Positions 3 through 16,632 of a stretch of 16,896 nt of DNA are shown piece by piece. The notes below the pieces were generated by a model. It saw only the letters and a program-made list of their open reading frames with translations, ran no database searches and had not been told where the DNA came from. A program made the position numbers and the translations under genes. Every line of letters begins with the position of its first letter. Position 1 is the first letter of the stretch. The DNA lies in assembly GCA_046543235.1 (NCBI GenBank), contig JBKGZT010000029.1, forward strand, positions 1-16,896, read 5' to 3'. The DNA is from Candidatus Acetothermia bacterium. Its GTDB lineage: Bacteria > Bipolaricaulota > Bipolaricaulia > M55B111.

Positions 3-1124
3 TCCTACCGAGCCGTCTTTCTGCTGGAGGATATAAAGGAAAGCAGCCCGGCCATTTTGAGAGGGGTTTCTTTCCAACAGCTGCCGGGGGAGGTCCTTCA
101 AGATATCAAGGATGGGATTTCACAAAAAGCGTGGGCAGAGCTTCAAAAGGCGATGAACCCCGAGAATGATTTCGGTTTTGATGATTTATCAGTCCGCACC
201 AGTAGAGAGATACTTGAAGCGATCCCGAGGGAAACCCTGGAGAAAGAGCTGGGGGTAGAGGGTAACTACGGCGCGGGATTGCAGCTGGCGGTTTCCGGGA
301 TGAAGGTAAGCGGCGTTTCCTTGGAATTGAAGACCAGGTTGGGAATGGTTCCAAACCCCGGTGAGATGGTCGGGGACGATCCGGGCAGCGGCTACGATGT
401 ATTTAACTCCGGCGGCAGATACGACGGTTACACGGGAAGTGACGTGGAAATAAACGAAATAGATTTCGGGGGAATAAGCCTGGATACTACCAGCAGTTTT
501 TCTGCCGAAGACGGGTACGAGGAAACCGAGGTCGAATTCTCGCTCGAGGAGGAATCTCTGGACTTCGAGCTCGATGGTACGATGACTTACAGTCCAGATG
601 AAAAGACCCTTTCGCTGGAGCCGTCACTGGACCTCGAGTGGGCCTGCTTCGACGTTTATACGGAGATTAAGCCGGGGGAATTGACGGAAGAGAAGAACGA
701 GATAACCGGATTGAACTTAAAAGGTTACGGGATGGACGAGCTTCAAATCGGTGACGTGAAGGTCAGCTTCCTGGAGACGATCGGGGATACCAAGCTGCAG
801 CGCCAGAGCGGCGAGGCGGACTGGCGGCTCCGGGCCTCCGACTACGAGCTATCCTCGGAATCGCAGTTTTCCTACGAAGCCCGTTCGTTCGTCTACAATG
901 AGACGGATTACGACGGAGTTCTGTCACTGGAAGGAGGGGGAGGTAACCTGGAAGTGGCCGTCGATACCTACTGGGAGAACGAAGAAACCGGGTTCTTCGG
1001 GATTAGCGAAGTAACCGGGGAGGGGAGCTACAGGATTAGCGAGTCCTTCGAGCTGACCAATGGCCTGGTGCTTGGTTCGGACGGACTGGAAGGGCTAATC
1101 GTAAACACGGTCTACAGCTGGTAA
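3..1124 (+). CDS. 5'-truncated acidic hypothetical protein, putative outer-membrane beta-barrel
   Basis: The frame is open from the window edge (SYRAVFLLEDIKESSPAIL precedes the listed TTG at 57). The protein is very D/E/G-rich with alternating-polarity beta-strand-like segments. The C-terminus GLIVNTVYSW ends Y-x-W, resembling a BAM beta-signal. Function is inferred. Confidence 0.6.
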   Translation, partial: SYRAVFLLEDIKESSPAILRGVSFQQLPGEVLQDIKDGISQKAWAELQKAMNPENDFGFDDLSVRTSREILEAIPRETLEKELGVEGNYGAGLQLAVSGMKVSGVSLELKTRLGMVPNPGEMVGDDPGSGYDVFNSGGRYDGYTGSDVEINEIDFGGISLDTTSSFSAEDGYEETEVEFSLEEESLDFELDGTMTYSPDEKTLSLEPSLDLEWACFDVYTEIKPGELTEEKNEITGLNLKGYGMDELQIGDVKVSFLETIGDTKLQRQSGEADWRLRASDYELSSESQFSYEARSFVYNETDYDGVLSLEGGGGNLEVAVDTYWENEETGFFGISEVTGEGSYRISESFELTNGLVLGSDGLEGLIVNTVYSW

Positions 1125-1330: not shown

Positions 1331-2236
1331 TTGCAGTCCTGGAATGATTTCAAATCGAAGCTTATCTTGTTTTTTAAAGGTATGGTAATGGGTTTCGCTT
1401 CGATCATCCCCAGCGTCTCCGGGGGCACCATGGCCCTGATAACCGGCATTTACGAGGAGCTGATCGAGGCTATTGAGTCGTTCGAACCGGCTATTTTGAT
1501 CGACCTCCTCGCCGGAAGGTTCAATCGATTTATAAAAGGAGTCAAAAGGATCGAATACGGTTTCCTGGTCCCGGTCGCGGCAGGGATCGGGGTTTCCCTG
1601 CTAGTCGGCTCTCAGTTCATCAGGTACCTGTTGGATAACTATCCTCCTTACGTTTACTCGTTTTTCTTCGGTCTGATACTTGCCTCTGCCGTATTGGTCT
1701 ACTACGAAGTACCCGAGCTAAAAGGGTCGGTGTTTCTTACCACGTCCCTGGGAGCCGGGGCCGCGGTTCTCCTCGTCGGGGTTTCGGCGGGGGAGGTAAG
1801 TCACGCCCTTCCCGTAATCTTTCTCGCCGGCGCGATCGCGATCTGTGCCATGATCCTGCCGGGAATTTCCGGAGCGCTGCTGCTCCTGTTGCTTGGCCAG
1901 TACGAGTACATACTGGACGCGGTAGACAACTTGCCGGCCAGTTTCCTGATTTTGCTCGTCTTCGGCTTCGGGGCCGCGGTTGGGATTGTAGCGTTCTCCC
2001 GAGCCCTCTCATTTGCCCTGGAGCGGTGGCGTTCGGAGACCTACGGGTTCTTGATCGGCCTGATGATCGGGGCCCTGCGCAAACCCTTAGAAGTGCTGGT
2101 GGGGTCGAGCGGTAATACGGCAATTGATTTCAGCTGGACGCTTCGGGCAACTTCTCTCGTCGTCCTGTTCGGCCTCTTCGGTATAGGAGTCGTGATTGGT
2201 CTGGGTTATTTCAGATCGTCCGATGGGCGGAGTTAA
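1331..2236 (+). CDS. DUF368 family membrane protein (undecaprenyl-phosphate recycling translocase family)
   Basis: Two repeated family motifs, KGMVMGFASIIPSVSGGTMALITGIYEELI and AICAMILPGISGALLLLLLGQY, plus multiple TM helices. GGGGAG SD at 1319-1324 precedes a TTG start. Confidence 0.9.
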   Translation: MQSWNDFKSKLILFFKGMVMGFASIIPSVSGGTMALITGIYEELIEAIESFEPAILIDLLAGRFNRFIKGVKRIEYGFLVPVAAGIGVSLLVGSQFIRYLLDNYPPYVYSFFFGLILASAVLVYYEVPELKGSVFLTTSLGAGAAVLLVGVSAGEVSHALPVIFLAGAIAICAMILPGISGALLLLLLGQYEYILDAVDNLPASFLILLVFGFGAAVGIVAFSRALSFALERWRSETYGFLIGLMIGALRKPLEVLVGSSGNTAIDFSWTLRATSLVVLFGLFGIGVVIGLGYFRSSDGRS

Positions 2237-2342: not shown

Positions 2343-3083
2343 ATGAATCGACAGTTAGACGAAATCGACAAACGGATAATTTACCGACTGACTCAAAACG
2401 CCAGGGACACCTCGGCCCCGGAGATAGCCGAAGAAGAAGGTGTCTCTCCGGCGACCATCCGCAATCGGATCAAAAAGCTCGAAGAGGACGGTATTATCCT
2501 GGGCTATCATGCCGAGGTAGCCTATGAGGAGATCGAGAGTCGCCTGGTAAATCTCTTCAGGTGCTCTTCTGAAGTCAAAAACAGGAACAAACTTGCACGC
2601 GAAGCTCTTCAGGTTTCCGGGGTTATTCACGTGCGAGAGATAATGTCCGGTGGAAAGGACCTGCATGTAAAAGCCGTGGGAAAGGACACGGAGGAGCTAA
2701 ACAGGATTGCAAACGACCTCGTTGATCTTGGGCTGGAAATTCGGGGTGAAGACCTGGTGAAACGGGAATACTTCCATCCGTATCACGATTTCGGCCCGGA
2801 AGAGGACGAAGCCAGGTCGTTGCTGGACTTCCGCTCGATTCCGGGGCCGGCCGAGATCGCGACTGTACGGGTAAAAGAGGAATCGCAGGTATCGGGAAAG
2901 AACGTCGAGACCATCAGTAAAAGTGGACTGATTGGGGATGGAGTTTTGCTCATTTCAGTTGAGAGAGGTGACAAAACGATCGTTCCCAGGGGGAAAACTA
3001 CGATAAAAACCGGAGACATAGTTTCCATTTTTTCCGCAACGGGAATAGGGGACGCGACGCTGGATGCCTTTAAAGGGCCTTAG
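2343..3083 (+). CDS. Lrp/AsnC family transcriptional regulator with C-terminal TrkA-C (RCK_C) domain
   Basis: N-terminal HTH LDEIDKRII..L..NAR.TSAPEIAEEEGVSPATIRNRIKKLEEDGII.GY, a central RAM-like region, and a C-terminal RCK_C motif (VKEESQVSGKNV...LLISVERGDKTIVPRGKTTIKTGDIVSIF). Confidence 0.9.
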   Translation: MNRQLDEIDKRIIYRLTQNARDTSAPEIAEEEGVSPATIRNRIKKLEEDGIILGYHAEVAYEEIESRLVNLFRCSSEVKNRNKLAREALQVSGVIHVREIMSGGKDLHVKAVGKDTEELNRIANDLVDLGLEIRGEDLVKREYFHPYHDFGPEEDEARSLLDFRSIPGPAEIATVRVKEESQVSGKNVETISKSGLIGDGVLLISVERGDKTIVPRGKTTIKTGDIVSIFSATGIGDATLDAFKGP

Positions 3084-3516
3084 TCTTTCATCGAGCTATG
3101 TTTTCCCCGGTAATATCTCGAACCGGACCACTTCCTTTGTTCAAGAGCTATTCGATTGCATCATTGCCTTAATTGTATTGTGCTTCCCTCATATATTTCC
3201 CTTTTTTTTGTTGATTCCGTAAAATTTAGGCGTATAAGCCTTGAATCAAAAAAATAATTCAATATACTAATTTTTACGTTAGAAGATTGCTTTGATTCAG
3301 AATCAGGCCGGACAAACCAAAAACCCGAGATTGGGTAAGGTGTTTTTAACCCTAACGCATTTATTAACTGGTAAACCGGGAAATTTTTAATTAGAAGTTC
3401 CGAGGTACGAACATCCTTGCAGTGGTGGGCTAAACTTGCCGTTGATTGTTCGGTTCAAGACGGATCTTACTATTGGCTATAAAAATATAACACAAATTGG
3501 CTTAGAAGCTTTATTT

Positions 3517-3546
3517 TTGCAAAGAATGTAATCCGTAGGTTATACT
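3517..3546 (+). promoter_or_regulatory. putative sigma70 promoter of the kdp operon
   Basis: TTGCAA (3517-3522), 18-nt spacer, TATACT (3541-3546), with AT-rich sequence upstream. It lies about 35 nt before the kdpF ATG. Confidence 0.6.
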
Positions 3547-3581
3547 TCAATTCAGCTCTGCTGTTAAGGGAGGGTTCCGTT

Positions 3582-3668
3582 ATGGGTGGACGAATGCTTT
3601 TGTTGGTCGTAGCCGGATTTATCTTTCTTTACCTTGGTTACGTTCTGATCTTTCCGGAGAGGTTTTAA
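3582..3668 (+). CDS. kdpF: K+-transporting ATPase subunit F (28 aa, not in the ORF track)
   Basis: Hand translation gives MGGRMLLLVVAGFIFLYLGYVLIFPERF*, with the KdpF signature YLxYxLxxPERF. SD AAGGGAGG at 3566-3573. The stop is 1 nt before the kdpA ATG. Confidence 0.93.
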   Translation: MGGRMLLLVVAGFIFLYLGYVLIFPERF

Positions 3669-3669
3669 C

Positions 3670-5406
3670 ATGTTCTTTGGAATAGTTCTCCCCTTGGCCC
3701 TGTTTTTCCTGATACTGGCGGGACTAGTTTACGTGCTGGGAGAGTATCTCGGATGGTCCTTCCGGGAAGAGATGGGCATAGAGGAAGGATTTCCTCGGTT
3801 CTTCGATTACCTCGAGCGCTACGTGGAAAAACCGATACTGGAACCGATCGAGAGGTTGATTTACCGAGTCGGCGGGATAGACCCGACGGTAACGATGAAC
3901 TGGAAGTCGTATCTTTTGAGTGCCCTCTGGCTCAACCTGATCCTGTTTGTTTTTATTTACCTGATTTTTCTTTTTCAGGGCGGCCTGCCTTTAAATCCCG
4001 CCGATATAGGAAACCTCGACTGGGACCTTGCTTTCCATAACGCCGCGACCTTTGTCTCCAACACGAACCAGCAACATTACGCCGGTGAAACGGCGCTTTC
4101 TTACTTCTCCCAGCTGGGAGCCGTCCTCCTGGCGATGTTTGCCTCCGCTGCAACCGGTTTGGGGTTGCTGGTAGGTTTTACTAAAGGTCTGACAAACGAA
4201 GAGGACCCCAGGCTCGGAAACTTCTTTGTCGCTTTTGTCAAATCCTTGACCAGGTTCCTGCTTCCGATCAGTTTCCTGTTAGCCCTATTTTTGATCAGTC
4301 AGGGGGTTCCTCAAACCCTGTCCGGCCCGATATCAGTAACCACGCTGGAAGGGGCTACCCAGACCATTGCAAGGGGGCCGGTGGCCACTCACGAGGCTAT
4401 CAAAATGCTTGGAACCAACGGAGGCGGGTTCTTTGCCGCCAACGCGGCCCATCCGTTCGAAAACCCGACCCCGCTATCGAACGTCGTCCTGAATCTATTT
4501 CTGTTTCTGGGAACTATATCCACCTTCTACGCCTTCGGAGTCTGGGTAAAGAAGAGAAAGCACGGATTGGTACTGGTTGGTGCGGTCTCGATTCTCGTGC
4601 TGGTGTTTCTCGCGCTGGCCGTTGGTGGAGAGACAGGAGGAAACCCGGCACTGGATGGACTGGGGATAGATGGAGCTCAGGGTAACATGGAAGGGAAAGA
4701 GGTCCGATTCGGAGCTACTTTGAGTGCTCTCTGGGGGGTATCCACGACTTCAACCACCAATGGCGGGGTTAATGCCATGCACGATAGCTTTACCGCTCTG
4801 GGTGGATTGGCGCTCTTTCTAGGAATGAGTCTTAATTCGCTGTTTGCCGGGGTCGGTACGGGGGTAATGAACTTGCTTACCTACGTCTTTCTGGCTGCTT
4901 TCATGGGAGCGCTGATGATTGGACGGGCTCCCGTTTACCTCGGAAAAAAGCTGGAATCGGACGAGATCAAGTTCGCAGCGATTATCATCCTTCTGCTCCC
5001 GACTCTGGTCCTTTTTCCGACCGGGATCGCCGTGGTAACAAACATGGGGAAAGAGGCAATAACCAATCCCGGTTTTCGTGGTTTTAGCCAGGTCATGTAC
5101 GAGTTCTTTTCAGCGGCAGCCAATAACGGTTCCGGCTTCGAAGGGCTGATGGATGATACCGTATTTTACAACGTGGCCGGAGGTTCCGTGATACTTCTCG
5201 CCAGGTATATTCCACTGGTTTTACAGATGATGATAGCCGGGTCCCTGGCCAGAAAGAAGGTTAGACCCGAGACGGAAGGGACTTTAAAAGTCGAAAACTT
5301 GCCTTTTTTGGTCCTTCTGCTGGTGATTATGGTTGTAATTGGGGGACTCGTGTTCATCCCAGCCCTGTCCCTTGGCCCCCTTGCAGAACTACTTTCACTG
5401 TGGTGA
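3670..5406 (+). CDS. kdpA: K+-transporting ATPase subunit A
   Basis: Pore and filter motifs NTNQQHY, GTNGGGFF..NAAHPFENPT, EGKEVRFG, TTNGGVNAMHDS and ANNGSGF. Confidence 0.98.
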   Translation: MFFGIVLPLALFFLILAGLVYVLGEYLGWSFREEMGIEEGFPRFFDYLERYVEKPILEPIERLIYRVGGIDPTVTMNWKSYLLSALWLNLILFVFIYLIFLFQGGLPLNPADIGNLDWDLAFHNAATFVSNTNQQHYAGETALSYFSQLGAVLLAMFASAATGLGLLVGFTKGLTNEEDPRLGNFFVAFVKSLTRFLLPISFLLALFLISQGVPQTLSGPISVTTLEGATQTIARGPVATHEAIKMLGTNGGGFFAANAAHPFENPTPLSNVVLNLFLFLGTISTFYAFGVWVKKRKHGLVLVGAVSILVLVFLALAVGGETGGNPALDGLGIDGAQGNMEGKEVRFGATLSALWGVSTTSTTNGGVNAMHDSFTALGGLALFLGMSLNSLFAGVGTGVMNLLTYVFLAAFMGALMIGRAPVYLGKKLESDEIKFAAIIILLLPTLVLFPTGIAVVTNMGKEAITNPGFRGFSQVMYEFFSAAANNGSGFEGLMDDTVFYNVAGGSVILLARYIPLVLQMMIAGSLARKKVRPETEGTLKVENLPFLVLLLVIMVVIGGLVFIPALSLGPLAELLSLW

Positions 5407-5412
5407 TAAAGA

Positions 5413-7440
5413 ATGGACAGTGAACAGGTATTAGATGCTCTCGGTGAAGCTATAAAGAAGTTAAACCCGGCGTACCTGGTAAAGAATCCAGTTATATTTG
5501 TCACCGAGATTAGTACCATTATAGTAATTGTCCTTACGATAGTCCCGGGTTTTTTCGGTGGTAGTCAGGGTAGATGGTACTACTCAGCCATTTCTGCGGT
5601 TCTATTATTCACGGTGGTTTTTGCCACTTTTGCCGAGTCGCTAGCTGAGACACAGGGAGAAGCCCACGCTGAAAGCCTGAGAGCGATGAAGGAGGAAGTT
5701 AATGGAAAGAGAGTTAATAAAGACCTCGCTCTCGACGAGATCGAGGAAGACGATCTGGAAGAAGTTGAGGCCGACGAACTGGCAGAAGGGGACCTGGTTT
5801 ACGTTACTGAAGGGGACGTGATCCCCAGGGACGGCACGATCGTTGAAGGGTCCGCTTCAATCGATGAATCAGCAATAACCGGCGAATCCGAGCCGGTCAT
5901 CCGGCAGAGTGGCGGGGACAAAAGCTCTGTTACGGGAGGTACAGAAGTGCTGAGTGACCAGCTCAAGATAGAAATAACTGCCGCGGCTGGAGAGTCGTTC
6001 ATGGATGAAATGATCGGTCTTGTGGAGAGCGCCAGCCGGGAAAAGACGCCGAACGAGATATCCCTCACTCTGTTGCTTGCCAGTTTTACCTTCATCTACA
6101 TGCTCGTTGTGACGACGTTGGCTTTCTTCGGGGATTTCGTCCGGTTGAACGTGGAGGTGGCGGACCAGATAGCGTTATTGATCGGACTTATGCCGACTAC
6201 CGTCGGCGCCCTTCTGTCGGCGATCAGGATCGCGGGCATGACGCGCGTGACCAGGGATAATGTTATAGCGAAGTCCGGCAAAGCTGTCGAGTCGGCCGGC
6301 GACCTCGACGTACTCATTCTCGATAAGACGGGCACCATCACGACGGGAGAAAGAGCGGCTACGGAGTTCATTTCCGTAGGGGGGTCCGATGAAGAGGAGG
6401 TAGTCGAAGCCGCGTTAAAGTCATCTTTTTACGACGAAACTACTGAAGGTCGATCGGTCGTTGCCCTGGCTGAACAAAATGGGAAGGAACTGAATGAGGA
6501 TGAAATATCCGAAGATGGTTTCCTTGAATTCAGCGCTGAAACGGGGATGAGCGGAATAGATCTCAAGGACGGAACGGAGATTAGAAAGGGCTCCGTGGAC
6601 GCGATCAAGGAGTACGCCGACTCTCCCCCGGACGAGCTGGACGATAAAGCCGCGGAAGTGGCTGATTCCGGGGGTACGCCGCTCGGACTGGCCGTGGACG
6701 GAAAAGTGCTTGGCATAATCGAACTGCAGGACGAATTAAAAGCTGGGATAGGGGAAAGGATTGACAGGCTCCAACAGATGGGGATAAAGACGATAATGTG
6801 TACCGGTGACAACGAACGGACTGCCCGCTATATAGCTGAAGAGGCAGGGTTGGACGAGTACTATGCCGAATTCCAGCCTGAAGAGAAGATCGGCCTGGTT
6901 GAAGAGGAGAAGGCAAAAGGTCACATGGTCGGGATGACCGGTGACGGGACCAACGATGCGCCTGCCCTGGCGAAAGCCGACGTCGGTCTGGCGATGAACG
7001 CCGGAACCGCCGCGGCAAAAGAAGCCGGCAACATGGTGGATATGGATTCGGATCCGACGAAGTTGATCGAGGTCGTTGGTATCGGCAAGCAGCTGTTGAT
7101 GACCAGGGGTTCGCTGACCACTTTCAGCATCGCAAACGACGTCTCGCGTTACTTCGCCCTTGTACCGGCGATATTTTCGGCGAGCATTCCGGCGCTCGGC
7201 AAGATGAACCTGATGAACCTGCATTCCCTACAGAGCGTGGTCATTTCCTCGCTGATATACAACAGCCTGATCATCCCGTTTCTAGTTCCGCTGGCGATGC
7301 GGGGTGTCGAATATAGACCGGTTAGCGCATCCCGGCTTCTGGTTCGTAACATGCTTATCTACGGGGGTAGCGGCCTGATCGTCCCGTTCCTTTCGATCAA
7401 GTTGATAGACTGGTTACTGGTTACCCTGGGGGTGTTTTAA
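5413..7440 (+). CDS. kdpB: K+-transporting ATPase subunit B (P-type IA ATPase)
   Basis: Motifs TGES, KTPNE, DKTGT (phosphorylation site), [17 protein letters not shown] and [13 protein letters not shown]. Confidence 0.98.
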
Positions 7441-7442
7441 TC

Positions 7443-8207
7443 GTGGTTGAGGAAGACGAAGAAGGCAGGCAGGAAGAAAGGCCGGAGGAAAAAGAAGAAA
7501 CCGAAACCAAAGAGGAAAAAGCGAAAGATGAAGAGGAAACGGCTGAAGAGGAGCCCGGAAAAGGGCACGAAGAAGAAAGCGAAGAGGTCAAAGAGGAAGA
7601 GGAAGAAGTTTCCTATCCCGATACTGATCAGCTAAGTACTTCTCGTTTGCTGACCACGGGCTTCCGGGTAGTTCTCATAGCCCTCGTGCTGACCAGCGTG
7701 CTGTACCCACTTGCCACTACGGGGATTGGAAACCTCGTCTGGCAGGATAATGCCCGGGGCGATCTGGTCCGATTTGATGGAGAAGTCGTCGGGTCTAAAT
7801 TGATCGGTCAGACTTTTACCTCGGAAAAGCACTTTCACCCCCGACCGTCCTCCAAGAACTACGACGGGATGGATTCGGGCAGCGCAAACCTATCACCGGA
7901 AAACGAGGAGCTTACCCGGCGAGCGGAGGAGCTGCTGGAAGGTCTGGAAGAAGAGGGAGTAGATCCGGAAGAAGTACCGGTTAGTTTCGTTACCGAATCC
8001 GGATCGGCTCTCGACCCCCACATTACCCCCGAATCCGCTTATCTCCAGGTGCCTCGGATAGCCGAGGCGACGGGAATCGATTCGGATAGATTGAGAGGCT
8101 TGATTGAAGATCTTACCAGTGGGAAATTTCTCGGTTTGTATGGACAGAAAAGAGTAAACGTATTAGAATTAAATTTAGAAATAGGAAGACTTATGGAGTC
8201 AGGATAA
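7443..8207 (+). CDS. kdpC: K+-transporting ATPase subunit C with a Glu-rich N-terminal extension
   Basis: Motifs YPLATTGIG, GSKLIGQ.F, FHPRPS, SGSANL, TESGSALDPHI, A.LQVPRIA and VNVLELNL. GTG start 2 nt after the kdpB stop, with a GGGGTG SD. Confidence 0.96.
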   Translation: MVEEDEEGRQEERPEEKEETETKEEKAKDEEETAEEEPGKGHEEESEEVKEEEEEVSYPDTDQLSTSRLLTTGFRVVLIALVLTSVLYPLATTGIGNLVWQDNARGDLVRFDGEVVGSKLIGQTFTSEKHFHPRPSSKNYDGMDSGSANLSPENEELTRRAEELLEGLEEEGVDPEEVPVSFVTESGSALDPHITPESAYLQVPRIAEATGIDSDRLRGLIEDLTSGKFLGLYGQKRVNVLELNLEIGRLMESG

Positions 8208-8208
8208 C

Positions 8209-9096
8209 ATGAATGACGCCGATAAGAAGCCGGAAGAAAACCAGGACTACGAAGACGTTTTGATAAGCGTTGCCAATCCGGAAACCGCCAAGCAACTCGT
8301 TACCCTGGCTCATATGGTCACCACCGACCAAACGACTCTCCATATCATGCACGTAACCCCCCAGGGTTCCTTTCCGGAGGAGGAACGTGCCTGGCGTGAA
8401 GGGTCCGAGCTGGTTATGGACACGACTCATTTTGCCAGGCGGCTGGACCGTGTGGCTAAACCCCTGACCGTAACCTCTGGTTCGATTCCCGGGGCTATAA
8501 TCAATACCGCCAAAGACCTTGGGGCTGATTTAATACTTATGGGGTGGTTCGGTAGAATCACTCCGGTTGTAGTCAGAAGGAGTTCGGTGGTTAACAAGGT
8601 TCTGAAGAAGGCTTCCTGTGACGTATCCGTTTTGAAATCCAGAAAGGACCTCTCGTCGGTTGAGTCAATTATGATGCCTGTGGGTCCAAATAAGCCACGA
8701 CCTAAGAGGCTCTCTCTAGTGAACAGGTTGGTTTGTCAGAGCGGTGCCGGGGGTGAGCTGGTCCACGTGCTAACCGGCGGCCCGGATGAGAGAACGGAGG
8801 AAGAAGCCACTCAGTATCTGGAGGAGTCCCTCGAACTCGTCGAAAACGAACTGGAAACGAGAATTATCACATCTAATACGGTTCTCGACGGGCTACTGAC
8901 CGCCTCCGAGGATGCCGACTTGATCGTTCTCGGTCCCGGTCGAGAGTGGGTCTTCAACCGCTTTCTTTTCGGGAGGACCGCCGATAACCTGACCAACAGG
9001 GTCGAATCATCGGTCGTCATGTTTAAGGGTAAGGAGCACAAGATGGTTGCCTGGTCCAGGGGACTGCTTAAAGCCATCCAGGACCTCTTTTCCTGA
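8209..9096 (+). CDS. tandem universal stress protein (USP) domain protein, KdpQ-like
   Basis: Two USP folds: VLISVANPET...ADLILMGW...VLKKASCDVSVLK and IMMPVG...ADLIVLG...FG.TADNL. It starts 1 nt after the kdpC stop, so it is probably co-transcribed. Confidence 0.88.
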   Translation: MNDADKKPEENQDYEDVLISVANPETAKQLVTLAHMVTTDQTTLHIMHVTPQGSFPEEERAWREGSELVMDTTHFARRLDRVAKPLTVTSGSIPGAIINTAKDLGADLILMGWFGRITPVVVRRSSVVNKVLKKASCDVSVLKSRKDLSSVESIMMPVGPNKPRPKRLSLVNRLVCQSGAGGELVHVLTGGPDERTEEEATQYLEESLELVENELETRIITSNTVLDGLLTASEDADLIVLGPGREWVFNRFLFGRTADNLTNRVESSVVMFKGKEHKMVAWSRGLLKAIQDLFS

Positions 9097-9298: not shown

Positions 9299-9720
9299 GA
9301 TAAGGGGGAGAGGAAGCCGCGGCCCCGAGGGCCGAGGAAAGTCCGGACTCCACAGGGCAGGTCGCTGGTCAAGGTATAATTACCGTAGACCAGAGCCGGT
9401 GACGGCTGGAAAGTGCCACAGAAAAGAGACCACCAGCACTTACTTTAATATGGGCTTAGGATATTGATCTTAACTTACAGCTAAAGAGTTAGGTTTTAAT
9501 TGACCTTTTCCGCCCAAAGTCCATATTAAAGTAAGTGCTGGTAAGGGTGAAACGGTGAGGTAAAAGCTCACCGCTCCGGCCGCGAGGTTCGGAGGCACGG
9601 CAAACCCCGACCGGAGTAAAGCCAAATAGGGAGGCTGGAGCTGCCCGCTCCGTTACCTCCGGGTAGGCTGCTGAGATAGATGGCTTCCTAACACAGGATC
9701 CGGCTTAACTCCCCCTTATC
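9299..9720 (+). ncRNA. rnpB: RNase P RNA, bacterial type A
   Basis: P1 GATAAGGGGGAG (9299-9310) pairs with CTCCCCCTTATC (9709-9720); P2 is AGGAAGCC/GGCTTCCT. Conserved regions GAGGAAAGTCCGG, AGTGCCACAGAAA, GGGTGAAACGG, GGCAAACCCC and ACAGGATCCGGCTTA are present. The P6 pseudoknot GGGCA/TGCCC and helices P13, P14 and P15-P17 are identifiable. Confidence 0.97.
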
Positions 9721-9728
9721 CTTATTTC

Positions 9729-10736
9729 CTAGCTGATCGGGTAAAAATAACCGAGCAGGCCGACACCGGCTAGAACTAACTGAACTATCCATAGCCTCCC
9801 AGTGACCTTGTTTTCCGGCCACTCGGCTTTCGGCAGCAGGTAGCTGTAATCTACTCCCTCCGCCGGCTCGAAGTGGTGATGCAGGGGGCTTATCTTGAAG
9901 ACCCTTTCCCCCGTGCTCTTGTAGTAGAGAACCTGGATCATCACTGAGAACGTATCAAGAGCGAAAAGACCTCCGAAAAAAGGCAGTAAAAGCTCCGTGC
10001 GTGTAACTAGCGCGGCGGTCGCTATTATTCCACCCAGCGCAAATGCTCCTGTATCCCCGAGGAAGAGTTCGGCGGGATAAAAGTTGTACCAGAGGAAACC
10101 GAAAATCCCGGCAATGGAGATAAAAAGAATTGGTAGCAATTCTGTAAAACCTATTACTGCAAAAGTAACCAGTGAAATCACCGCCGCCCCACCGGCTAGA
10201 CCGTCAAGCCCGTCCGTCAGGTTGACCGCATTGACGGTCCCGATCAGGACGAAGGCCGTCAGGGGGTAATAAGCGACGGTCGGTACGAGTAATTCTCCGC
10301 GGCTAAATGGAAGTATGAGCCTGTTTGGCTCTTCGAGCAGCAATAGGGACAGGAAAATCAGTGAAAGGGATACGATTAGCTGTAACAGTATTTTTTCCCC
10401 CGGCTTCAATCCCCGGGATTGTTCGTTTAAAATGCTCAGCAGGTCGTCAGCACAGCCGACGAGTCCGAAGCCAAACCCCCCAAGAAGAAAGAGAGGTAAG
10501 TAGTTCCTAACCGCGGGTAAATAAAACCATAGAAATGGGGACGAGAAACCCACGGCGGCCAGAATCGCCAGCCCTCCCATGGTTGGTGTACCGCTCTTGT
10601 GTTCGTGCAGGTTCGGACCCCAGCTCCTTATCTGCTGGCCGATACCTTCTTCGGACATGATCCTGATCATGAGGCCAGAGGCCGTTATTGAAATCCCTAA
10701 GGAGACTAGGCATAGGACGAAGGTAGTCAAAACCAA
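9729..10736 (-). CDS. mraY: phospho-N-acetylmuramoyl-pentapeptide transferase
   Basis: Motifs GQQIR..GP..H..KSGTPTMGG, GCADD, NAVNLTDGLDGLA, FLGDTGA and PLHHHFE. AGGTGA SD precedes a TTG start. Confidence 0.96.
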   Translation of the reverse strand: MVLTTFVLCLVSLGISITASGLMIRIMSEEGIGQQIRSWGPNLHEHKSGTPTMGGLAILAAVGFSSPFLWFYLPAVRNYLPLFLLGGFGFGLVGCADDLLSILNEQSRGLKPGEKILLQLIVSLSLIFLSLLLLEEPNRLILPFSRGELLVPTVAYYPLTAFVLIGTVNAVNLTDGLDGLAGGAAVISLVTFAVIGFTELLPILFISIAGIFGFLWYNFYPAELFLGDTGAFALGGIIATAALVTRTELLLPFFGGLFALDTFSVMIQVLYYKSTGERVFKISPLHHHFEPAEGVDYSYLLPKAEWPENKVTGRLWIVQLVLAGVGLLGYFYPIS

Positions 10737-10768
10737 GTCTATTCACCTGTAGTTAAGCGGGAGTCATG

Positions 10769-10800
10769 AAAAAACCGGTGAAAGCGGGAAATCCGGGTTT
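10769..10800 (-). terminator. weak possible terminator or attenuator hairpin between gatA and mraY
   Basis: Minus strand reads AAACCCGG, a 14-nt loop, then CCGGTTTTTT. The stem is short and the loop large. Confidence 0.3.
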
Positions 10801-10806
10801 GGTTGT

Positions 10807-12213
10807 TCAAAAAGCCCTTTCAAAAGCATGGCCGGCTCGGAGAATTTCCTTTTCGGCCAAGCTATCCCCGATTATCTGCATGCCGACAGGTAAACCGTCT
10901 ACCTCCCCGGCCGGCATGGACATGGCCGGCAGTCCTGCCAGGTTGACCGGGACGTTAAAGACGTCCGAGAGGTACATCTCTAGCGGGTCGTCTATTTTGT
11001 CCCCGATTTCAAACGCCGGAGTCGGCGAAGTGGGGGCAGCTATCAGGTCTACCGATTCGAACGCACGGTCGAAGTCCTCTTTTATCAGCCTTCTGACTTT
11101 CTGGGCTTTGCCATAGTACTCGTCGTAATAGCCGGCTGAGAGCGCGTAAGTTCCAAGTAGTATCCTTCGTTTGACCTCCGGACCAAAGCCCTCGTCCCGG
11201 CTCTTCGAAAAGAGCTCGTCGATGGAGTCGGTATCCGCTCTGCTGGTGTATCTGACGCCGTCGAAACGTGCCAAATTGGCACTTGCCTCCGAGCTGGCTA
11301 TCAGATAATAGGTGGCGATCGCGTATTCGCTATGGGGAAGAGAAACTTCCGCTACCTCCGCTCCGAGGTCCTCAAACGTTTCCCGCCACTTCTTCCCTTT
11401 TTCCCTGATGCTAGCGTCCAGCTCCTCGCCGAAGTATTCTTCCGGAAAGCCGACCTTGAGCCCCAATATTCCCCGATTGATCCCGGAGGTGTAGTCCGGA
11501 GTATCTTTTACGGCAGAAGTAGAATCCATCTCGTCGTAACCGGCAAGATAGTTCAGCAGGAGGGCTGCGTCGTAGACGTCCTTGGTGATCGGTCCGATCT
11601 GGTCCAGTGAGGACGCGAAAGCCGTGAGGCCATAACGGGATACCAGGCCGTAAGTAGGTTTCAGTCCTACGACCCCACAGAATGAAGCAGGGTGGCGGAC
11701 GGAACCGCCCGTATCGGAACCGAGGGCGTAGATTGCCTCGTCGGCAGCTACCGCGGCCGCCGAGCCTCCTGACGAACCTCCAGGCACACGCGATAGGTCT
11801 CGAGGGTTCCTGGTGGTCTGAAAGTAGGAGTTTTCCGTAGAGGAACCCATCGCGAACTCGTCCATGTTGGCCTTGCCGAGGACGGGAGAGCCGGCCTCTT
11901 TCAGGGACTTGATAACAGTGGCGTCATAGACGGACTCGTAGTCCTTCAAGAACCTGGACCCGCAGGTCGTCTTGAAACCGAGTGTCTGTATGTTGTCCTT
12001 TATCGTCCCCGGTACTCCTTTTAACGGCCTGTCCAAAAATTCCCTTGCCGCTTCTAGTAGTTCTTCCTTGCCGGCCAGTTCCAGGTAGGCCTGGACGTTC
12101 TCCTCGACGTCGTCTATTTGTTCAAACAGGTCGTCGTAGAGCTCGTCCAACCTGTCGGGTTCGTCTTCCAGCAAATCCAGGGTCTCGTGTAAAGTCAGCT
12201 TGTTTAGGTTGAT
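10807..12213 (-). CDS. gatA: Asp/Glu-tRNA(Asn/Gln) amidotransferase subunit A
   Basis: Amidase triad motifs IKDN, GGSSGGS and GSDTGGS, plus GatA-specific [29 protein letters not shown] and [10 protein letters not shown]. The start is placed at ATC 12213, 7 nt after GGGAGGT; the ORF track uses TTG 12174. Confidence 0.95.
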
Positions 12214-12322
12214 CGTAACTACCTCCCGGAATAGTCAATGTTTCTAAATGGGTTCCGACCAGGAACGGATTACCGGTCAATGGTTTTTTCAAAAATAAGG
12301 TCTTTCTAGCCGTTCGACAACT

Positions 12323-12350
12323 ATTATAACGTTTGGGTATACGCGTTCAA
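12323..12350 (-). promoter_or_regulatory. putative sigma70 promoter for gatA(-mraY)
   Basis: Minus strand TTGAAC (12350-12345), 16-nt spacer, TATAAT (12328-12323). Confidence 0.6.
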
Positions 12351-12352
12351 AC

Positions 12353-12460
12353 TTACAAACCCTCAGATCTTTCAGCTCCTCGGTCATGGTTTGATTTTCC
12401 GGTAAGAAAGTTCGCCTTCAGTTCCCGACACTTTCTTGCCGGAACCCGGTCGTCGGACAT
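12353..12460 (-). CDS. small hypothetical ORF (35 aa) or gene remnant
   Basis: MSDDRVPARKCRELKANFLTGKSNHDRGAERSEGL*, preceded by a strong SD GGAGGAGG (12475-12468) at 7-nt spacing. No family is recognisable. Confidence 0.35.
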   Translation of the reverse strand: MSDDRVPARKCRELKANFLTGKSNHDRGAERSEGL

Positions 12461-12533
12461 ATGTGGTCCTCCTCCAGGGCTTTCTGGCCCGACTAGTACG
12501 ATCGTAAGTTTGATTTAAAACTCTGAATTGGAT

Positions 12534-12572
12534 AAAAAAAGGGAACGACCGCGGGATAGATTCCCGCGGTCG
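12534..12572 (-). terminator. Rho-independent terminator downstream of trpB2
   Basis: 11-bp perfect stem CGACCGCGGGA (12546-12556) / TCCCGCGGTCG (12562-12572) with a 5-nt loop, followed on the minus strand by TTCCCTTTTTTT. Confidence 0.8.
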
Positions 12573-12608
12573 ACGGTGTTCTAAATACCCCTCCTTCGAA
12601 ATCGACGT

Positions 12609-13919
12609 TTAGTGGTAAACGTCCTTTAGCTTCCCTTTCCGGTAGTCGTCGTAGGCCGCCATGTCGAAGTTTCCATGGCCGCTGTAGTTGAATACGATTG
12701 TCTTGTCCTCGTTTTCTTCCTTCGCCTTCTTTGCCTCGTCTATTGCTGCCTTTATCGCGTGAGCTGACTCCGGAGCAGGTATGTAACCTTCTGTGTTTGC
12801 AAAAGTCAGTGCCGCCTCGAAGATGTCCGTCTGTTCGTAGGCTTTTGGAGTCATATAACCCTTACTGTTTAGCCTGCCGACTATCGGCGCCATGCCGTGG
12901 TAGCGGAGCCCTCCCGCGTGAATTCCGTCGGGTACGAAATCGTGCCCCAGGGTGTACATGTTCATCAGCGGCGTCATTTCTCCGCTGTCGGCGAAATCGT
13001 ATCTCTGTTCGCCCTTGGTCAATGTCGGACAGGCCGTTGGTTCCGCTCCGATCATCTTTATGTCCTTTCCTTCCTCGAGTTTGTCCTTCAGGAAAGGCAA
13101 AACGAGGCCGCTGAAGTTGCTTCCACCGCCGACGCAGCCGATCAATACGTCCGGCTTCTCGCCCGCCTTCTCCAGCTGCAGTCGCGTCTCCTTTCCCAGG
13201 ACGGATTGGTGGATCATCACGTGGTTCAGGACGCTACCCAGGGAGTACTTGGCGTCGTCGGATTTGGAGGCTACCTCGATTGCTTCGCTGATTGCCATCC
13301 CGAGGGTCCCTTCCGTGTCCGGGTCCTCTTCCAGGAACTTCCTTCCGGCCTCCGTTTCTTCCGAGGGACTTGGGACAATCTCGCCGTTCCACGTTTGGAC
13401 CATCGACTTCCTGTACGGCTTCTGGTTGTAGCTGACTTTTACCATAAATACTTTTGCGTTCAGGCCAAGCTGTGACGTGGTAAAGCTAAGGGCGCTGCCC
13501 CACTGACCGGCTCCGGTCTCGGTAGTCAGGGTTTTGGTACCTTCTTGTTTTGCGTAGTAGGTCTGGGGTAATGCGGTATTCGGCTTGTGGCTGCCAGGAG
13601 GTGAAGCTCCTTCGTATTTGAAATATATGCTTGCCGGGGTTCCCAGCTTTCTTTCCAGGTTCGTTGCCCTGATTAGAGGGGTTGGTCTCCATATTTTATA
13701 GATCTCTCGCACTTCTTCCGGTATGTCTATTTCCCGCTCCCGGCTGGTTTCCAGCTCTATCGAACGTTCGGGGAAGATTTTCTTTAACTCCTCGGGCGGC
13801 ATCGGTTCCCTCGTTTCCGGGTCCAGTGGCGGTTCGAGCGGTTCGTCGAATAAAGGTATAGGGTTGAACCACGTTTTGGGTGCGTCGGCTTGATCGAGAT
13901 GGATCATCTTGTTTTCCAT
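12609..13919 (-). CDS. trpB2: tryptophan synthase beta chain type 2 (TrpB2, stand-alone, PLP-dependent)
   Basis: TrpB2-type motifs WRPTPL.RA, GSHKPN (PLP lysine), [38 protein letters not shown] and APESAHA. AGGAGGT SD. No trpA is adjacent. Confidence 0.95.
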
Positions 13920-14141
13920 TTTACATACCTCCTGTTAGGTATAATATGTGGTAAGGTCTTGATATTGGCTCAAAGCAAGGCTGTACTGGAGTAAGGTTGT
14001 CAAAGTCGAGTTACGCTATGTTTGGCGGTTCAGGGCCGCCAGGCTGGCTCCAGCTGTTCGGGAAAGAAAGAGGGCAATTTGGGGTGGATCGAAAAAACGA
14101 AGGGAAAGGAAAGGTTTGTTATCCCGCAGAGTCGGTCTTTT

Positions 14142-14183
14142 TTATTGTGGGCCGGGCCAAACCCGATCACCTAGGTTTTTCAT
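14142..14183 (-). CDS. putative Trp-containing leader peptide of trpB2 (MKNLGDRVWPGPQ)
   Basis: 13-aa uORF with a GAGGTG SD (14195-14190), directly after a good promoter, containing one TGG codon. It ends about 220 nt upstream of trpB2. Confidence 0.6.
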   Translation of the reverse strand: MKNLGDRVWPGPQ

Positions 14184-14211
14184 GTATTTCACCTCGTAAT
14201 TATTCTCGACT

Positions 14212-14240
14212 AGTATAGCGAACTTTCCTTAGTTAATCAA
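14212..14240 (-). promoter_or_regulatory. sigma70 promoter for the leader-trpB2 transcript
   Basis: Minus strand TTGATT (14240-14235), 17-nt spacer, TATACT (14217-14212). Confidence 0.75.
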
Positions 14241-14327
14241 GCTTCGATATCGAGAAGATCCTGATCCTCGTTGTCCGTTTGGCTTAAGAGGTTTCAGTAC
14301 TTAACGATTATAGTATCCATTCTGAGC

Positions 14328-14415
14328 AGCGGGGAACTCCTGGACGAGTCGGGGAATGCTTGGCCGAGCGCCAGCGAGGGAGTCTCAGGAGCCCGAACCA
14401 GGGATCTTCCAGGCT
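14328..14415 (+). ncRNA. candidate structured small RNA of unknown class
   Basis: GC-rich island in an AT-rich intergenic region with nested pairings: GGAA/TTCC, TCCTGG/CCAGGG, TCGGG/CCCGA, and hairpins TGGC/GCCA and GAG/CTC. A -10-like TATAGT/TAGTAT lies at 14309-14316. Confidence 0.45.
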
Positions 14416-14483
14416 ATTTATGGGTTTGTTAACCGTAATGCTTTGCTGGAAGATTTATGAGGAGATAAAAACTCCGTATCAGC

Positions 14484-14512
14484 TTGCATACCCCGGTAGT
14501 CTGGCTTAATAT
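14484..14512 (+). promoter_or_regulatory. putative promoter of tRNA-Ala
   Basis: TTGCAT (14484-14489), 17-nt spacer, TAATAT (14507-14512), 12 nt before the tRNA. Confidence 0.65.
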
Positions 14513-14524
14513 TATCCTCGATCT

Positions 14525-14600
14525 GGGGCCGTAGCTCAGTCGGGAGAGCGCGTGGTCGGCATCCACGAGGTCACGGGTTCGAATCCCGTCGGCTCCACCA
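14525..14600 (+). tRNA. tRNA-Ala(GGC)
   Basis: 76-nt cloverleaf: acceptor stem GGGGCCG/CGGCTCC with the G3:U70 alanine determinant, D-arm GCTC/GAGC, anticodon arm CGTGG-TCGGCAT-CCACG, T-arm ACGGG-TTCGAAT-CCCGT, and encoded ACCA. Confidence 0.95.
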
Positions 14601-14698
14601 CGATCCCTTTCATTCAGACCTTTTGCCTCTACCGACCTAATTTGATTACCGGCCAAGAAGATTATAGTCCGGATTGGTGGTGGTAAAGGAATTGAGTT

Positions 14699-15754
14699 TC
14701 ATTCTTTCTTTATTATCCTGGCCTGACTCCCCAGCGTCGCGCTCACACGATCTCCCGGAATTTCTATCGTCGCGTCGGCTCCCACCAATGCGTCGGAAAG
14801 CTCCGTGTTTACGACCTCCGTTCCGGACATGATTATCGCGTCTTCGACGTGAGAGTCCTCGACTACTACGTCTTCACCTATGGAGACGTTCGGGCCCAGC
14901 TTCGAGTTAACGACCTCCGAGTTCTCGGCCACGCGGACCGGACCACTTATCTTGCTCTTTCGGATGACGCTACCCTGGTCCGTGCCTATCTCGGATCGTT
15001 TACGCAATTCGGTATCAACCGTTTCTCCTTCTATCGAAAGGTCGGTATCGCGAAGCAGGACGTCGTTCGCTTCGATTGCATCCCCCGGTCGCCCGACGTC
15101 AAGCCACCAGCCTTCGATCTCTGATGGCGTCACCCGCCTTCCTTCTTTGATCAAGCGCGCTATTGCATCGGTTATCTCCAGTTCTCCCCTGTCGGAGGGT
15201 TCTATTTCTTCTATGGCCGGGAATATCTCCTCGGTAAACAGGTAGGTTCCGACGATTGCCAGGTTGCTCGGAGGACGGTCCGGTTTCTCGACCAGGTCGA
15301 CGACTTCCCCGCCCTCTATTTCGGCCACGCCAAACCTCTCCGGGTCCTCCACTGGTGCGAGAAGGATGGAGGCGGGCGAGTTGCTCTTTTGGAAATCGTT
15401 AACCATCTCCTCGAGTCCGGTCTGGAGAAGGTTATCCCCGAGGTATACCAGGAAAGGCTCGTCCCGGACGAAGTCCCGCGCACAGTCGACCGCGTGGGCC
15501 AGCCCCCTGGGGTCTTCCTGGTGGATATAAGTGATTGAAGCCCCCCACCTGGAGTTTCCCAGTACATCTCTGTACATCCCTTCCATTTCGGGGGATACGA
15601 CCAGGCCGATCTCGTCGATCCCTGCATCGATGACTTTTTCGACGTTGTACCGCAGAATTCTTTTGTTTGCTATCGGTATCAGGTGTTTTGGAACGGAGTA
15701 GCTTATCGGACGCATTCTCGTACCTTTCCCGGCACAGAGAAACACTCCTTTCAA
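14699..15754 (-). CDS. glucose-1-phosphate thymidylyltransferase, long form (sugar-phosphate nucleotidyltransferase with C-terminal beta-helix)
   Basis: Motifs KGVFLCAGKGTRMRP..YSVPKHL.PIANK, Q..PRGLAHAV, YLGDN, FGVAE, EKP, PS.RGELEITDAI and WW.D.G, with hexapeptide-like repeats at the C-terminus. The start is reassigned to TTG 15754 after a GAGGTG SD (15766-15761). Confidence 0.9.
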   Translation of the reverse strand: MKGVFLCAGKGTRMRPISYSVPKHLIPIANKRILRYNVEKVIDAGIDEIGLVVSPEMEGMYRDVLGNSRWGASITYIHQEDPRGLAHAVDCARDFVRDEPFLVYLGDNLLQTGLEEMVNDFQKSNSPASILLAPVEDPERFGVAEIEGGEVVDLVEKPDRPPSNLAIVGTYLFTEEIFPAIEEIEPSDRGELEITDAIARLIKEGRRVTPSEIEGWWLDVGRPGDAIEANDVLLRDTDLSIEGETVDTELRKRSEIGTDQGSVIRKSKISGPVRVAENSEVVNSKLGPNVSIGEDVVVEDSHVEDAIIMSGTEVVNTELSDALVGADATIEIPGDRVSATLGSQARIIKKE

Positions 15755-15924
15755 AACGATCACCTCGATTTGAAACCAATTATAACCCAATCTTTCACGC
15801 CTGTAAAAGTCCGTAATATGGTTTAATAAGTGGTACGAGTTGGGGGCGGACCGAACGTTGTTTTATCCCAGATGCGGGTTAAAATTGGGACGAATTCAAT
15901 TCAATTCTCGAGCGGGAGGTCAAG

Positions 15925-16632
15925 ATGTCTCAACCCCCAGTAGTTTCCGTATACGGCAACTCGGATTCAGGCAAAACTGAGCTGGTAGTGGATTTGATTC
16001 AGGAATTCAAAGGGGACGGCCTGAAGGTATGTACGATCAAGCACAGCCCTTCGGAGGTTTCTCTGGACGAAGAAGGAAAGGACACCTGGCGCCATAGAGA
16101 AGGTGGAGCGGAACTGGTCGTCTTCTCAACGGAAGTCGAAACCGACTTCCTCTTTCCCAAAGAGCTGGCGATAGGTGATATTCTCGAGATGGTTGATAGG
16201 ATGGTCGATCCCGATCTGGTTATAGCGGAAGGGTACAAGGACGAAGACGTACCGAAGATAGCTGTGGGGGAAATCGACGAGAGGGAGAATACTCTGGATA
16301 GGTTTGACGGAAACCGGGCCAGGCTGAAGGAAGCCATAAGGCGGGAGATCGAGGTAAAAGCGATAGAGGAGGAGCTACCCGGCTTGGACTGTGGTAGGTG
16401 CGGCTACGCTAGCTGTAGAGAGCTTGCGGAGGCGATCCACGCGGGCGACAACGCCTTGGAAGACTGCGAAGTCAGGGAAGGGCGGTCCGTAATGCTGGAG
16501 GTAGACGGCGAGGAGATCCCTCTGGAGAACTTTCCGGCACTGATGCTCGAGGAAGGGTTGAAAGGCATGCTCAGGTCACTAAAGGGGGTAGACGGGGAAA
16601 TCGAAAGAATAGACCTGACGATCGACGGTTGA
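15925..16632 (+). CDS. mobB: molybdopterin-guanine dinucleotide biosynthesis protein B with C-terminal Fe-S domain
   Basis: Walker A GNSDSGKT, motifs IKH, D.EGKDTWRH..GA and DLVIAEGYK, then LPGLDCGRCGYASC...DC (four-Cys FeS motif). GGGAGGT SD. Confidence 0.9.
   Translation: MSQPPVVSVYGNSDSGKTELVVDLIQEFKGDGLKVCTIKHSPSEVSLDEEGKDTWRHREGGAELVVFSTEVETDFLFPKELAIGDILEMVDRMVDPDLVIAEGYKDEDVPKIAVGEIDERENTLDRFDGNRARLKEAIRREIEVKAIEEELPGLDCGRCGYASCRELAEAIHAGDNALEDCEVREGRSVMLEVDGEEIPLENFPALMLEEGLKGMLRSLKGVDGEIERIDLTIDG

Follow-up and report, generated by a model that had tools for sequence, protein, structure and literature searches.

The DNA described here, hereafter the window, is a stretch of 16,896 nucleotides (nt) that makes up one complete contig (JBKGZT010000029.1) of a bacterial metagenome-assembled genome (MAG), Candidatus Acetothermia bacterium (1.32 Mb, 87% complete). 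The system in question is its kdpFABC potassium pump operon, together with kdpQ, a tandem universal stress protein (USP) gene directly behind it, and an Lrp-TrkA_C regulator gene in front. Close homologues of the window's proteins carry Ca. Bipolaricaulota/Acetothermia names, and the long open reading frames (ORFs) are acidic (median D+E 16.6% vs. K+R 11.1%), which fits life in brine. The features of the operon and its upstream region are:

2343-3083, plus strand: Lrp/AsnC helix-turn-helix (HTH) and TrkA_C (RCK_C) protein, 246 amino acids (aa) (Pfam HTH_AsnC-type, E 3e-10; TrkA_C, E 2e-7)
3084-3581, no strand: AT-rich intergenic region, without Rfam match
3517-3546, plus strand: sigma70-like pair, 9/12 consensus, 18-nt spacer, ending 35 nt 5' of the kdpF start
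3582-3668, plus strand: kdpF, 28 aa (PF09604 above cut-off; Shine-Dalgarno sequence at 3568-3573)
3670-5406, plus strand: kdpA, 578 aa, of the brine clade described below (NCBIfam equivalog cut-off passed)
5413-7440, plus strand: kdpB, P-type ATPase, 675 aa (NCBIfam equivalog cut-off passed; TGES and DKTGT motifs intact)
6733-6780, plus strand: central part of the KdpB surface predicted to bind KdpQ, residues 441-456 (complex prediction)
7443-8207, plus strand: kdpC, 254 aa (NCBIfam equivalog cut-off passed)
8209-9096, plus strand: kdpQ, tandem USP of 295 aa (two Usp stretches), 1 nt past the kdpC stop
8371-8442, plus strand: KdpQ helix 55-78, predicted KdpB contact (Trp62-Arg63 codons at 8392-8397)

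The kdpF, A, B and C genes are all intact and in that order, and every ORF of the layout proposed in an earlier, sequence-only reading of the window (Lrp-TrkA_C, kdpFABC, and a USP gene after 1 nt) was confirmed at its coordinates. The KdpC N-terminus has an acidic extension of about 60 aa (window 7443-7620), which differs in length between relatives; KdpC proteins are 212-291 aa long in the window's family vs. 189-190 aa in Halanaerobiia.

The kdpFABCQ layout is already known from Halobacterium, and judged by sequence comparison the window's tandem USP is KdpQ, as the earlier reading had suggested. It shares 31% identity (pairwise E 3e-32) with the USP encoded after kdpC on Halobacterium salinarum plasmid pHS3, which is its top match among 72,556 plasmid records, and the two fall in one maximum-likelihood (ML) clade (100/99). 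The H. salinarum operon (on pHS3 / pNRC200) resembles the window's in gene order and in the clades of KdpA, KdpB and KdpQ; it differs in that the window's operon belongs to a bacterium, is preceded by a sigma70-like pair and a Shine-Dalgarno sequence, and has Lrp-TrkA_C as 5' neighbor where Halobacterium has a divergent trkA. The two are not sister lineages, and the window's proteins have two additions, an extra C-terminal helix in KdpQ and the acidic N-terminal tail of KdpC. That predicted helix (residues 276-294, window 9035-9093), in which a Trp and a Gly are conserved across the Bipolaricaulota/PVC (Planctomycetes-Verrucomicrobia-Chlamydiae) branch and which the shorter Halobacterium and Halanaerobiia proteins lack, is possibly a membrane anchor.

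That the kdpFABCQ operon is unique to this bacterium is not supported. KdpQ follows kdpC in 13/13 related Bipolaricaulota loci with DNA past kdpC (14 were fetched, of which one ends early) and in 12/12 readable Halanaerobiia loci (three more end early), hence in 25/25 readable brine-clade loci. "Halanaerobiia" here denotes the class of one genome (G273), a label that rests on one member's KdpA being 100% identical to a Halanaerobium congolense protein. Accession numbers of KdpA and a USP are three apart in five further records from four lineages: a Euryarchaeota MAG, Ca. Aegiribacteria, two Ca. Krumholzibacteriales and Ca. Brocadiia. A scan of a genome collection with KdpA returned 12 loci of the Bipolaricaulota family and 68 distant ones, and none from other brine lineages; for haloarchaea, kdp synteny is based on one plasmid region and three KdpA proteins. 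A second kdpQ copy, 74% identical to the window's and without pump genes, lies in a related genome (G005, contig C85; L042:4169-5065) between a divergent Lrp-TrkA_C gene and trkH/trkA; another (G020) has, immediately 5' of kdpF, a further USP gene that is more distantly related (L031:6276-7157). Downstream of kdpQ at four loci (L021, L023, L024, L026) are trkH and a convergent trkA, which together with the operon make up an island of K+ uptake genes.

The absence of the KdpDE system, as proposed by the sequence-only reading, was borne out. A profile search found no match to the KdpD family above cut-off in the 87% complete host genome, nor in any of 19 genomes of its family; KdpD occurs in 1/41 sampled genomes of the class. 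A weak KdpD-family match in the host proved to be RadA, and for the sole OmpR-type regulator the top scores come from MtrA/OmpR/PhoB models, its KdpE score being far below the cut-off. In the Halanaerobiia class kdpA was found in 15/102 genomes and KdpD in 0/102. Outgroup kdp loci show the opposite arrangement: a KdpQ-like USP in 0/73, and a KdpD domain in 57/57 of those whose DNA extends 1 kb or more beyond kdpC. In family f4, which belongs to the window's own phylum, KdpA is distant (42%), and kdpD comes after it in 5/5 fetched loci. In the loci examined KdpQ and KdpD are thus mutually exclusive; the counts include kin and are not independent, so that this is a pattern rather than a statistic. 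Operons under KdpDE control (E. coli, Staphylococcus aureus, Bipolaricaulota f4) are like the window's in their pump subunits, in the TGES serine and in having an accompanying USP domain; they differ in that the window lacks KdpD and KdpE, its USP being a free tandem protein without the cyclic di-AMP (c-di-AMP) motif.

Transcriptional control appears in several forms. The c-di-AMP riboswitch RF00379 was found by Rfam neither in the window, as the earlier reading had inferred, nor in the host genome or in 18 related Bipolaricaulota loci; in the window Rfam detected RNase P RNA and a tRNA only. The riboswitch does lie 5' of kdpF, at 68-88 bits, in 8/15 Halanaerobiia loci (L239-L243, L245, L246, L250), one of the 15 having no upstream DNA. 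Riboswitch-controlled kdp has been described as seemingly restricted to Bacillales (PMC6488665). The operon of Bacillus thuringiensis in that source is comparable to the window's in the lack of a full KdpDE system and in a host able to make c-di-AMP, and differs in that the window has no RF00379, though sister Halanaerobiia kdpFABCQ operons carry it. The capacity for c-di-AMP synthesis, a further point raised by the earlier reading, is present: DisA is encoded in the host genome above its cut-off, and a diadenylate cyclase in 19/20 relatives. Directly 5' of kdpFABCQ in Halanaerobiia lies a HAMP/PAS histidine kinase with one or two receiver proteins and trkA-trkA-trkH (L251:1509-6963; similarly L253, L255, L256, L258 and L262-L264); no DNA-binding domain was recognized in the receiver proteins.

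The operon of H. salinarum has an archaeal promoter with an operator (PMC4299497). An archaeal promoter (B recognition element and TATA box) with operator, as in the Halobacterium-type operon, was not found in the window, which has the sigma70-like pair and a Shine-Dalgarno sequence instead. The sequence-only reading proposed a sigma70 promoter here. The pair 5' of kdpF is not significant alone, the region having eight sigma70-like sites vs. 5.0 +/- 2.3 in shuffled sequences, but an identical -10 box occurs 27-45 nt 5' of kdpF in 6/14 related loci, including relatives without Lrp. Transcriptional control is an exchangeable front end: many Halanaerobiia have a c-di-AMP riboswitch, Halobacterium uses an archaeal operator, and the window has a sigma70 promoter with an optional Lrp-TrkA_C.

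KdpQ itself has no DNA-binding domain recognizable by Pfam. Since it is retained under these three types of control, and without such a domain, it more likely acts on the pump. The KdpD-type c-di-AMP motif, (A/G/C)xSxSx2N, is absent from the window's KdpQ, so that the proposal of a KdpD-like c-di-AMP sensor is not supported; the pattern occurs in 1/45 KdpQs, and the Walker A motif of ATP-binding USPs, G-x2-G-x9-G-(S/T), in 0/45 (motif definitions from PMC8214093). The modeled KdpQ fold (predicted local distance difference test, pLDDT, 84) matches tandem USPs in Foldseek about as well as it does the regulatory domains on the cytoplasmic side of cation-chloride cotransporters, with template-modeling (TM) scores of about 0.6; a search of the ESM Atlas gave generic USP clusters only. 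The closest non-Kdp sequence relatives include many amino-acid-permease-USP fusions, matched in their C-terminal USP part. The C-terminal domains of cotransporters (KCC/NKCC) and permease-USP fusions (PDB 3g40, 6vwa) thus share the tandem USP fold; KdpQ differs in being a free protein encoded beside a P-type ATPase, and in having a Trp-Arg pair that is mostly missing there. This pair is present in 45/45 KdpQs vs. 3/123 other tandem USPs.

A possible site of action on the pump comes from complex prediction. KdpB (25-row alignment) folded with KdpQ 11-295 (33 rows) gave a complex score of 0.69 (runs 0.70, 0.69 and 0.68) vs. 0.00 for the best of three controls, with at least 97% of contacts agreeing between runs and a partner pLDDT of at least 77; the score mark is met by 116/157 solved and 2/215 mismatched pairs, counts that are only roughly valid with custom alignments. 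The predicted contacts join KdpQ 40-89, mainly helix 55-78, to KdpB 441-456, 547-560, 344-357 and 631-636, and the best of them fall on Trp62 and Arg63, whose invariance had been noted prior to folding. PDB searches with KdpQ found no Kdp-USP complex, so that recall of a similar structure by the predictor is not evident.

Our preferred reading, to which we would give a probability of roughly 0.6, is that brine lineages share a kdpFABCQ operon without KdpD, in which KdpQ is predicted to sit on the cytoplasmic motor domain of KdpB, likely controls the pump there, and so would stand in for the KdpD off-switch. E. coli KdpD also phosphorylates KdpB Ser162, stopping the pump, and many archaea are without KdpD (PMC11018627); the KdpD-target serine (TGES) is kept in the brine clade. 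Helix 55-78, with Trp62 and Arg63, would dock on KdpB 441-456 and 547-560, in the region of the P domain, and docked KdpQ would restrain the pump, filling the gap left by KdpD. Without KdpQ the pump would end a K+ shortage sooner, and kdp transcription would fall; in Halobacterium, kdpQ would then appear to be the positive regulator it has been called.

Several points weigh against this reading. The binding of KdpQ to KdpB is the output of a model and not a measurement, and as KdpB and KdpQ alone were folded together, the model would not reveal a clash with KdpA, C and F or with the membrane. Conservation of the KdpQ interface is borderline (0.60 vs. 0.54, p=0.053), and the KdpB interface is not enriched in clade-specific residues (2/37 vs. 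28/390 at other cytoplasmic positions, p=0.76). Neither the sign of the KdpQ effect nor any ligand is shown by these data, and H. salinarum kdpQ has been labeled a positive auto-regulator (PMC8303175). It is also possible that a kdpD was missed in a single genome, most related genomes being 70-90% complete.

The lack of a clade-specific signal on the KdpB side, together with the false passes noted above for mismatched pairs, would suit a different explanation, in which the predicted complex is such a false pass and KdpQ, as a soluble sensor of nucleotides or stress, acts on kdp expression through another partner and makes no contact with the pump; nucleotide binding is common in USPs (PMC8214093). 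The near-absence of both nucleotide motifs from KdpQs argues against this, as does the fact that the most family-specific KdpQ residues fall on the predicted interface, and no partner other than the pump is evidently common to Halobacteria, Halanaerobiia and Bipolaricaulota. We regard such a sensor as very unlikely. The same missing motifs, which leave no evident ligand to sense, are compatible with another possibility: that KdpQ binds KdpB to promote its assembly or stability, or as an activator that keeps the ATPase running in molar salt, rather than as an off-switch. The complex prediction, the strict co-inheritance of KdpQ with the pump and its confinement to the brine clade would all fit. 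Pure activation would predict more kdp transcription upon loss of kdpQ, however, which sits badly with the positive auto-regulator label, and the strict either-or of KdpQ and KdpD suits a common job; this alternative therefore seems to us unlikely, if still worth bearing in mind.

The third alternative is the one favored by the sequence-only reading, that the Lrp-TrkA_C protein is a sensor of c-di-AMP or K+ that takes over from KdpDE at the kdp promoter, with KdpQ serving as a co-regulator of transcription. The protein has a haloarchaeal architecture, as claimed: an AsnC-type HTH, a RAM-like domain and TrkA_C give it the layout of H. salinarum Trh2, a likeness of domain content, and it is 43-49% identical to named haloarchaeal homologues. 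The Trh2-type fusions of Halobacteria, called restricted to halobacteriaceae in 2014 (PMC4236453), share this architecture; the window's protein differs from them in being bacterial and in belonging to a branch of its own (100/100, 18 of the 42 rows) that includes no named haloarchaeon, in an unrooted tree in which most rows are unnamed. BusR, a GntR-RCK_C repressor responsive to c-di-AMP (PMC8517857), is likewise a DNA-binding domain joined to RCK_C, with a weak fold match (7b5t); it has a GntR winged helix and coiled coil where the window's protein has an Lrp-type HTH and RAM domain. RCK_C residues Glu207, Pro215 and Gly217 are invariant in 29 rows, and c-di-AMP is bound by only two of four haloarchaeal RCK proteins (PMC12699388). 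The Lrp mRNA is possibly leaderless, because no Shine-Dalgarno sequence is seen upstream of its start.

Several observations favor a regulatory role at kdp. The gene lies just 5' of kdp in the window, and in the metagenome loci L126 and L127, which are of one lineage, an intact copy stands ahead of a trkA fragment and of kdpF; 5' relics directly before kdpF remain in one relative (G004, E 7e-12) and, weakly, in a second (G015, E 0.07). As indirect evidence, three further Lrp and KdpA matches agree in the length of the longest contig. A diadenylate cyclase, as noted, is near-ubiquitous in the relatives. More generally, trkA, trkH or kdp lies within 5 kb of 29/65 distinct Lrp proteins (80 metagenome loci) vs. 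2.3% of positions in the host genome, which has two trkAH loci; this background is that of a bacterial host, and haloarchaea may have more trk copies, so that the enrichment is likely overstated. In relatives the gene also occurs divergent from the second kdpQ and trkH (G005) and near trkA (G017). At 24/80 Lrp loci USP-like genes are found no more than 5 kb away, and on a Haloarcula plasmid Lrp-TrkA_C directly follows a permease-USP fusion (L269:3599-6765); one further locus (L128) looks bacterial from its neighbor genes.

The distribution of the gene speaks against a standing replacement of KdpDE. Among 13 relatives' loci with upstream DNA, none has an intact Lrp 5' of kdpF; two have relics, one is too short and ten have no trace, including G014, whose KdpA is 97% identical to the window's, and the DNA of another relative (G007) aligns to the window on either side of the Lrp block. 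Full-length Lrp was found in 4/184 genomes of the phylum, all of the window's family, in two of which kdpA was not found, and near kdp in 0/15 Halanaerobiia loci. Conversely, kdp itself is near 2/80 metagenome Lrp loci, and a blastn comparison of five Lrp-flanking spacers found no common operator. The kdp genes of H. salinarum are, we presume, VNG6176-6179. No VNG617x gene is among the 40 Trh2 targets listed for H. salinarum in supplementary file 15 of PMC4236453. KdpQ, moreover, persists under riboswitch control. Replacement of KdpDE by the Lrp-TrkA_C protein at the promoter thus appears improbable, if less so than the soluble sensor. The gene is accessory to the kdp operon and optional; from its sequence neighborhoods it is likely a regulator of K+ uptake genes where kept, having stood beside kdp for part of the family's history and often been lost.

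ML trees of KdpA (47 of 94 rows; all 94 by FastTree) and KdpB (28 rows) each contain one long-stemmed brine clade (100/100), comprising Bipolaricaulota families f1 and f3, Planctomycetota, Fermentibacterota, Krumholzibacteriota, a Euryarchaeote, Halanaerobiales, MSBL1 and Halobacteria; in the KdpB tree its rows are Bipolaricaulota, Halanaerobiia and H. salinarum only. The nearest outgroups are bacterial, and in the KdpA tree Halobacteria join Halanaerobiales and MSBL1, away from the window. The KdpA, KdpB and KdpQ trees agree on the main split, and by this shared clade and split the pump and KdpQ moved as a unit between brine-dwelling bacteria and archaea. The exchange of a module with haloarchaea, as proposed earlier, did not survive as a direct transfer: a forced group of the window's family with Halobacteria was rejected by approximately unbiased (AU) tests for KdpA (p=0.0002, 47 of 94 rows) and KdpQ (p=0.001, 30 rows), both run under LG+G4 without a mixture model. 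A haloarchaeal donor for pump and KdpQ is thus not supported by the sequences, and KdpABC is missing from most haloarchaea (PMC4230888). Overall the sequence-only interpretation is partly supported. The fuller version of the preferred reading, of a five-part KdpFABCQ pump common to brine bacteria and archaea, in which KdpQ would be a freed transporter-tail USP clamped on the KdpB P domain as a kinase-free switch replacing KdpD, we would put at even odds.

The remaining features of the window are:

3-1124, plus strand: acidic ORF, 355 aa or longer, without Pfam or NCBIfam match, preceding DUF368 also in two relatives (G014, G010)
1331-2236, plus strand: DUF368 / undecaprenyl-phosphate translocase-like gene, 5' of kdp also in four related loci
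9301-9722, plus strand: class A RNase P RNA, 422 nt vs. a 367-position model (Rfam)
within 9729-16632: mraY, an amidase-family gene (which we take to be gatA-like), a pyridoxal phosphate (PLP) enzyme (presumably trpB-like), a nucleotidyltransferase and a mobB-iron-sulfur (FeS) fusion
14525-14597, plus strand: tRNA (Rfam)

KdpFABC is a model P-type pump, and its known shut-off depends on KdpD (PMC11018627). Of 2990 Kdp-bearing species surveyed, 142 were without KdpD, KdpE or riboswitch, and the question of their regulator was posed (PMC6488665). No report of a bacterial kdpQ, or of KdpQ binding KdpB, was found in the open-access literature searched. The present analysis names a whole clade of Kdp pumps without KdpD, with the exclusion of KdpQ and KdpD from one another in the loci examined, and it widens the known range of both the Trh2-type fusion and riboswitch-controlled kdp beyond what had been published. 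It also yields a residue-level hypothesis, in which KdpQ Trp62 and Arg63 would rest on KdpB 441-456 and 547-560, and which bears directly on H. salinarum, where kdpQ has a phenotype. If the five-part KdpFABCQ reading is true, it would be a new mode of regulation of a P-type ATPase, and KdpQ, the "transcriptional co-regulator" of Halobacterium, would be recast as a pump subunit.

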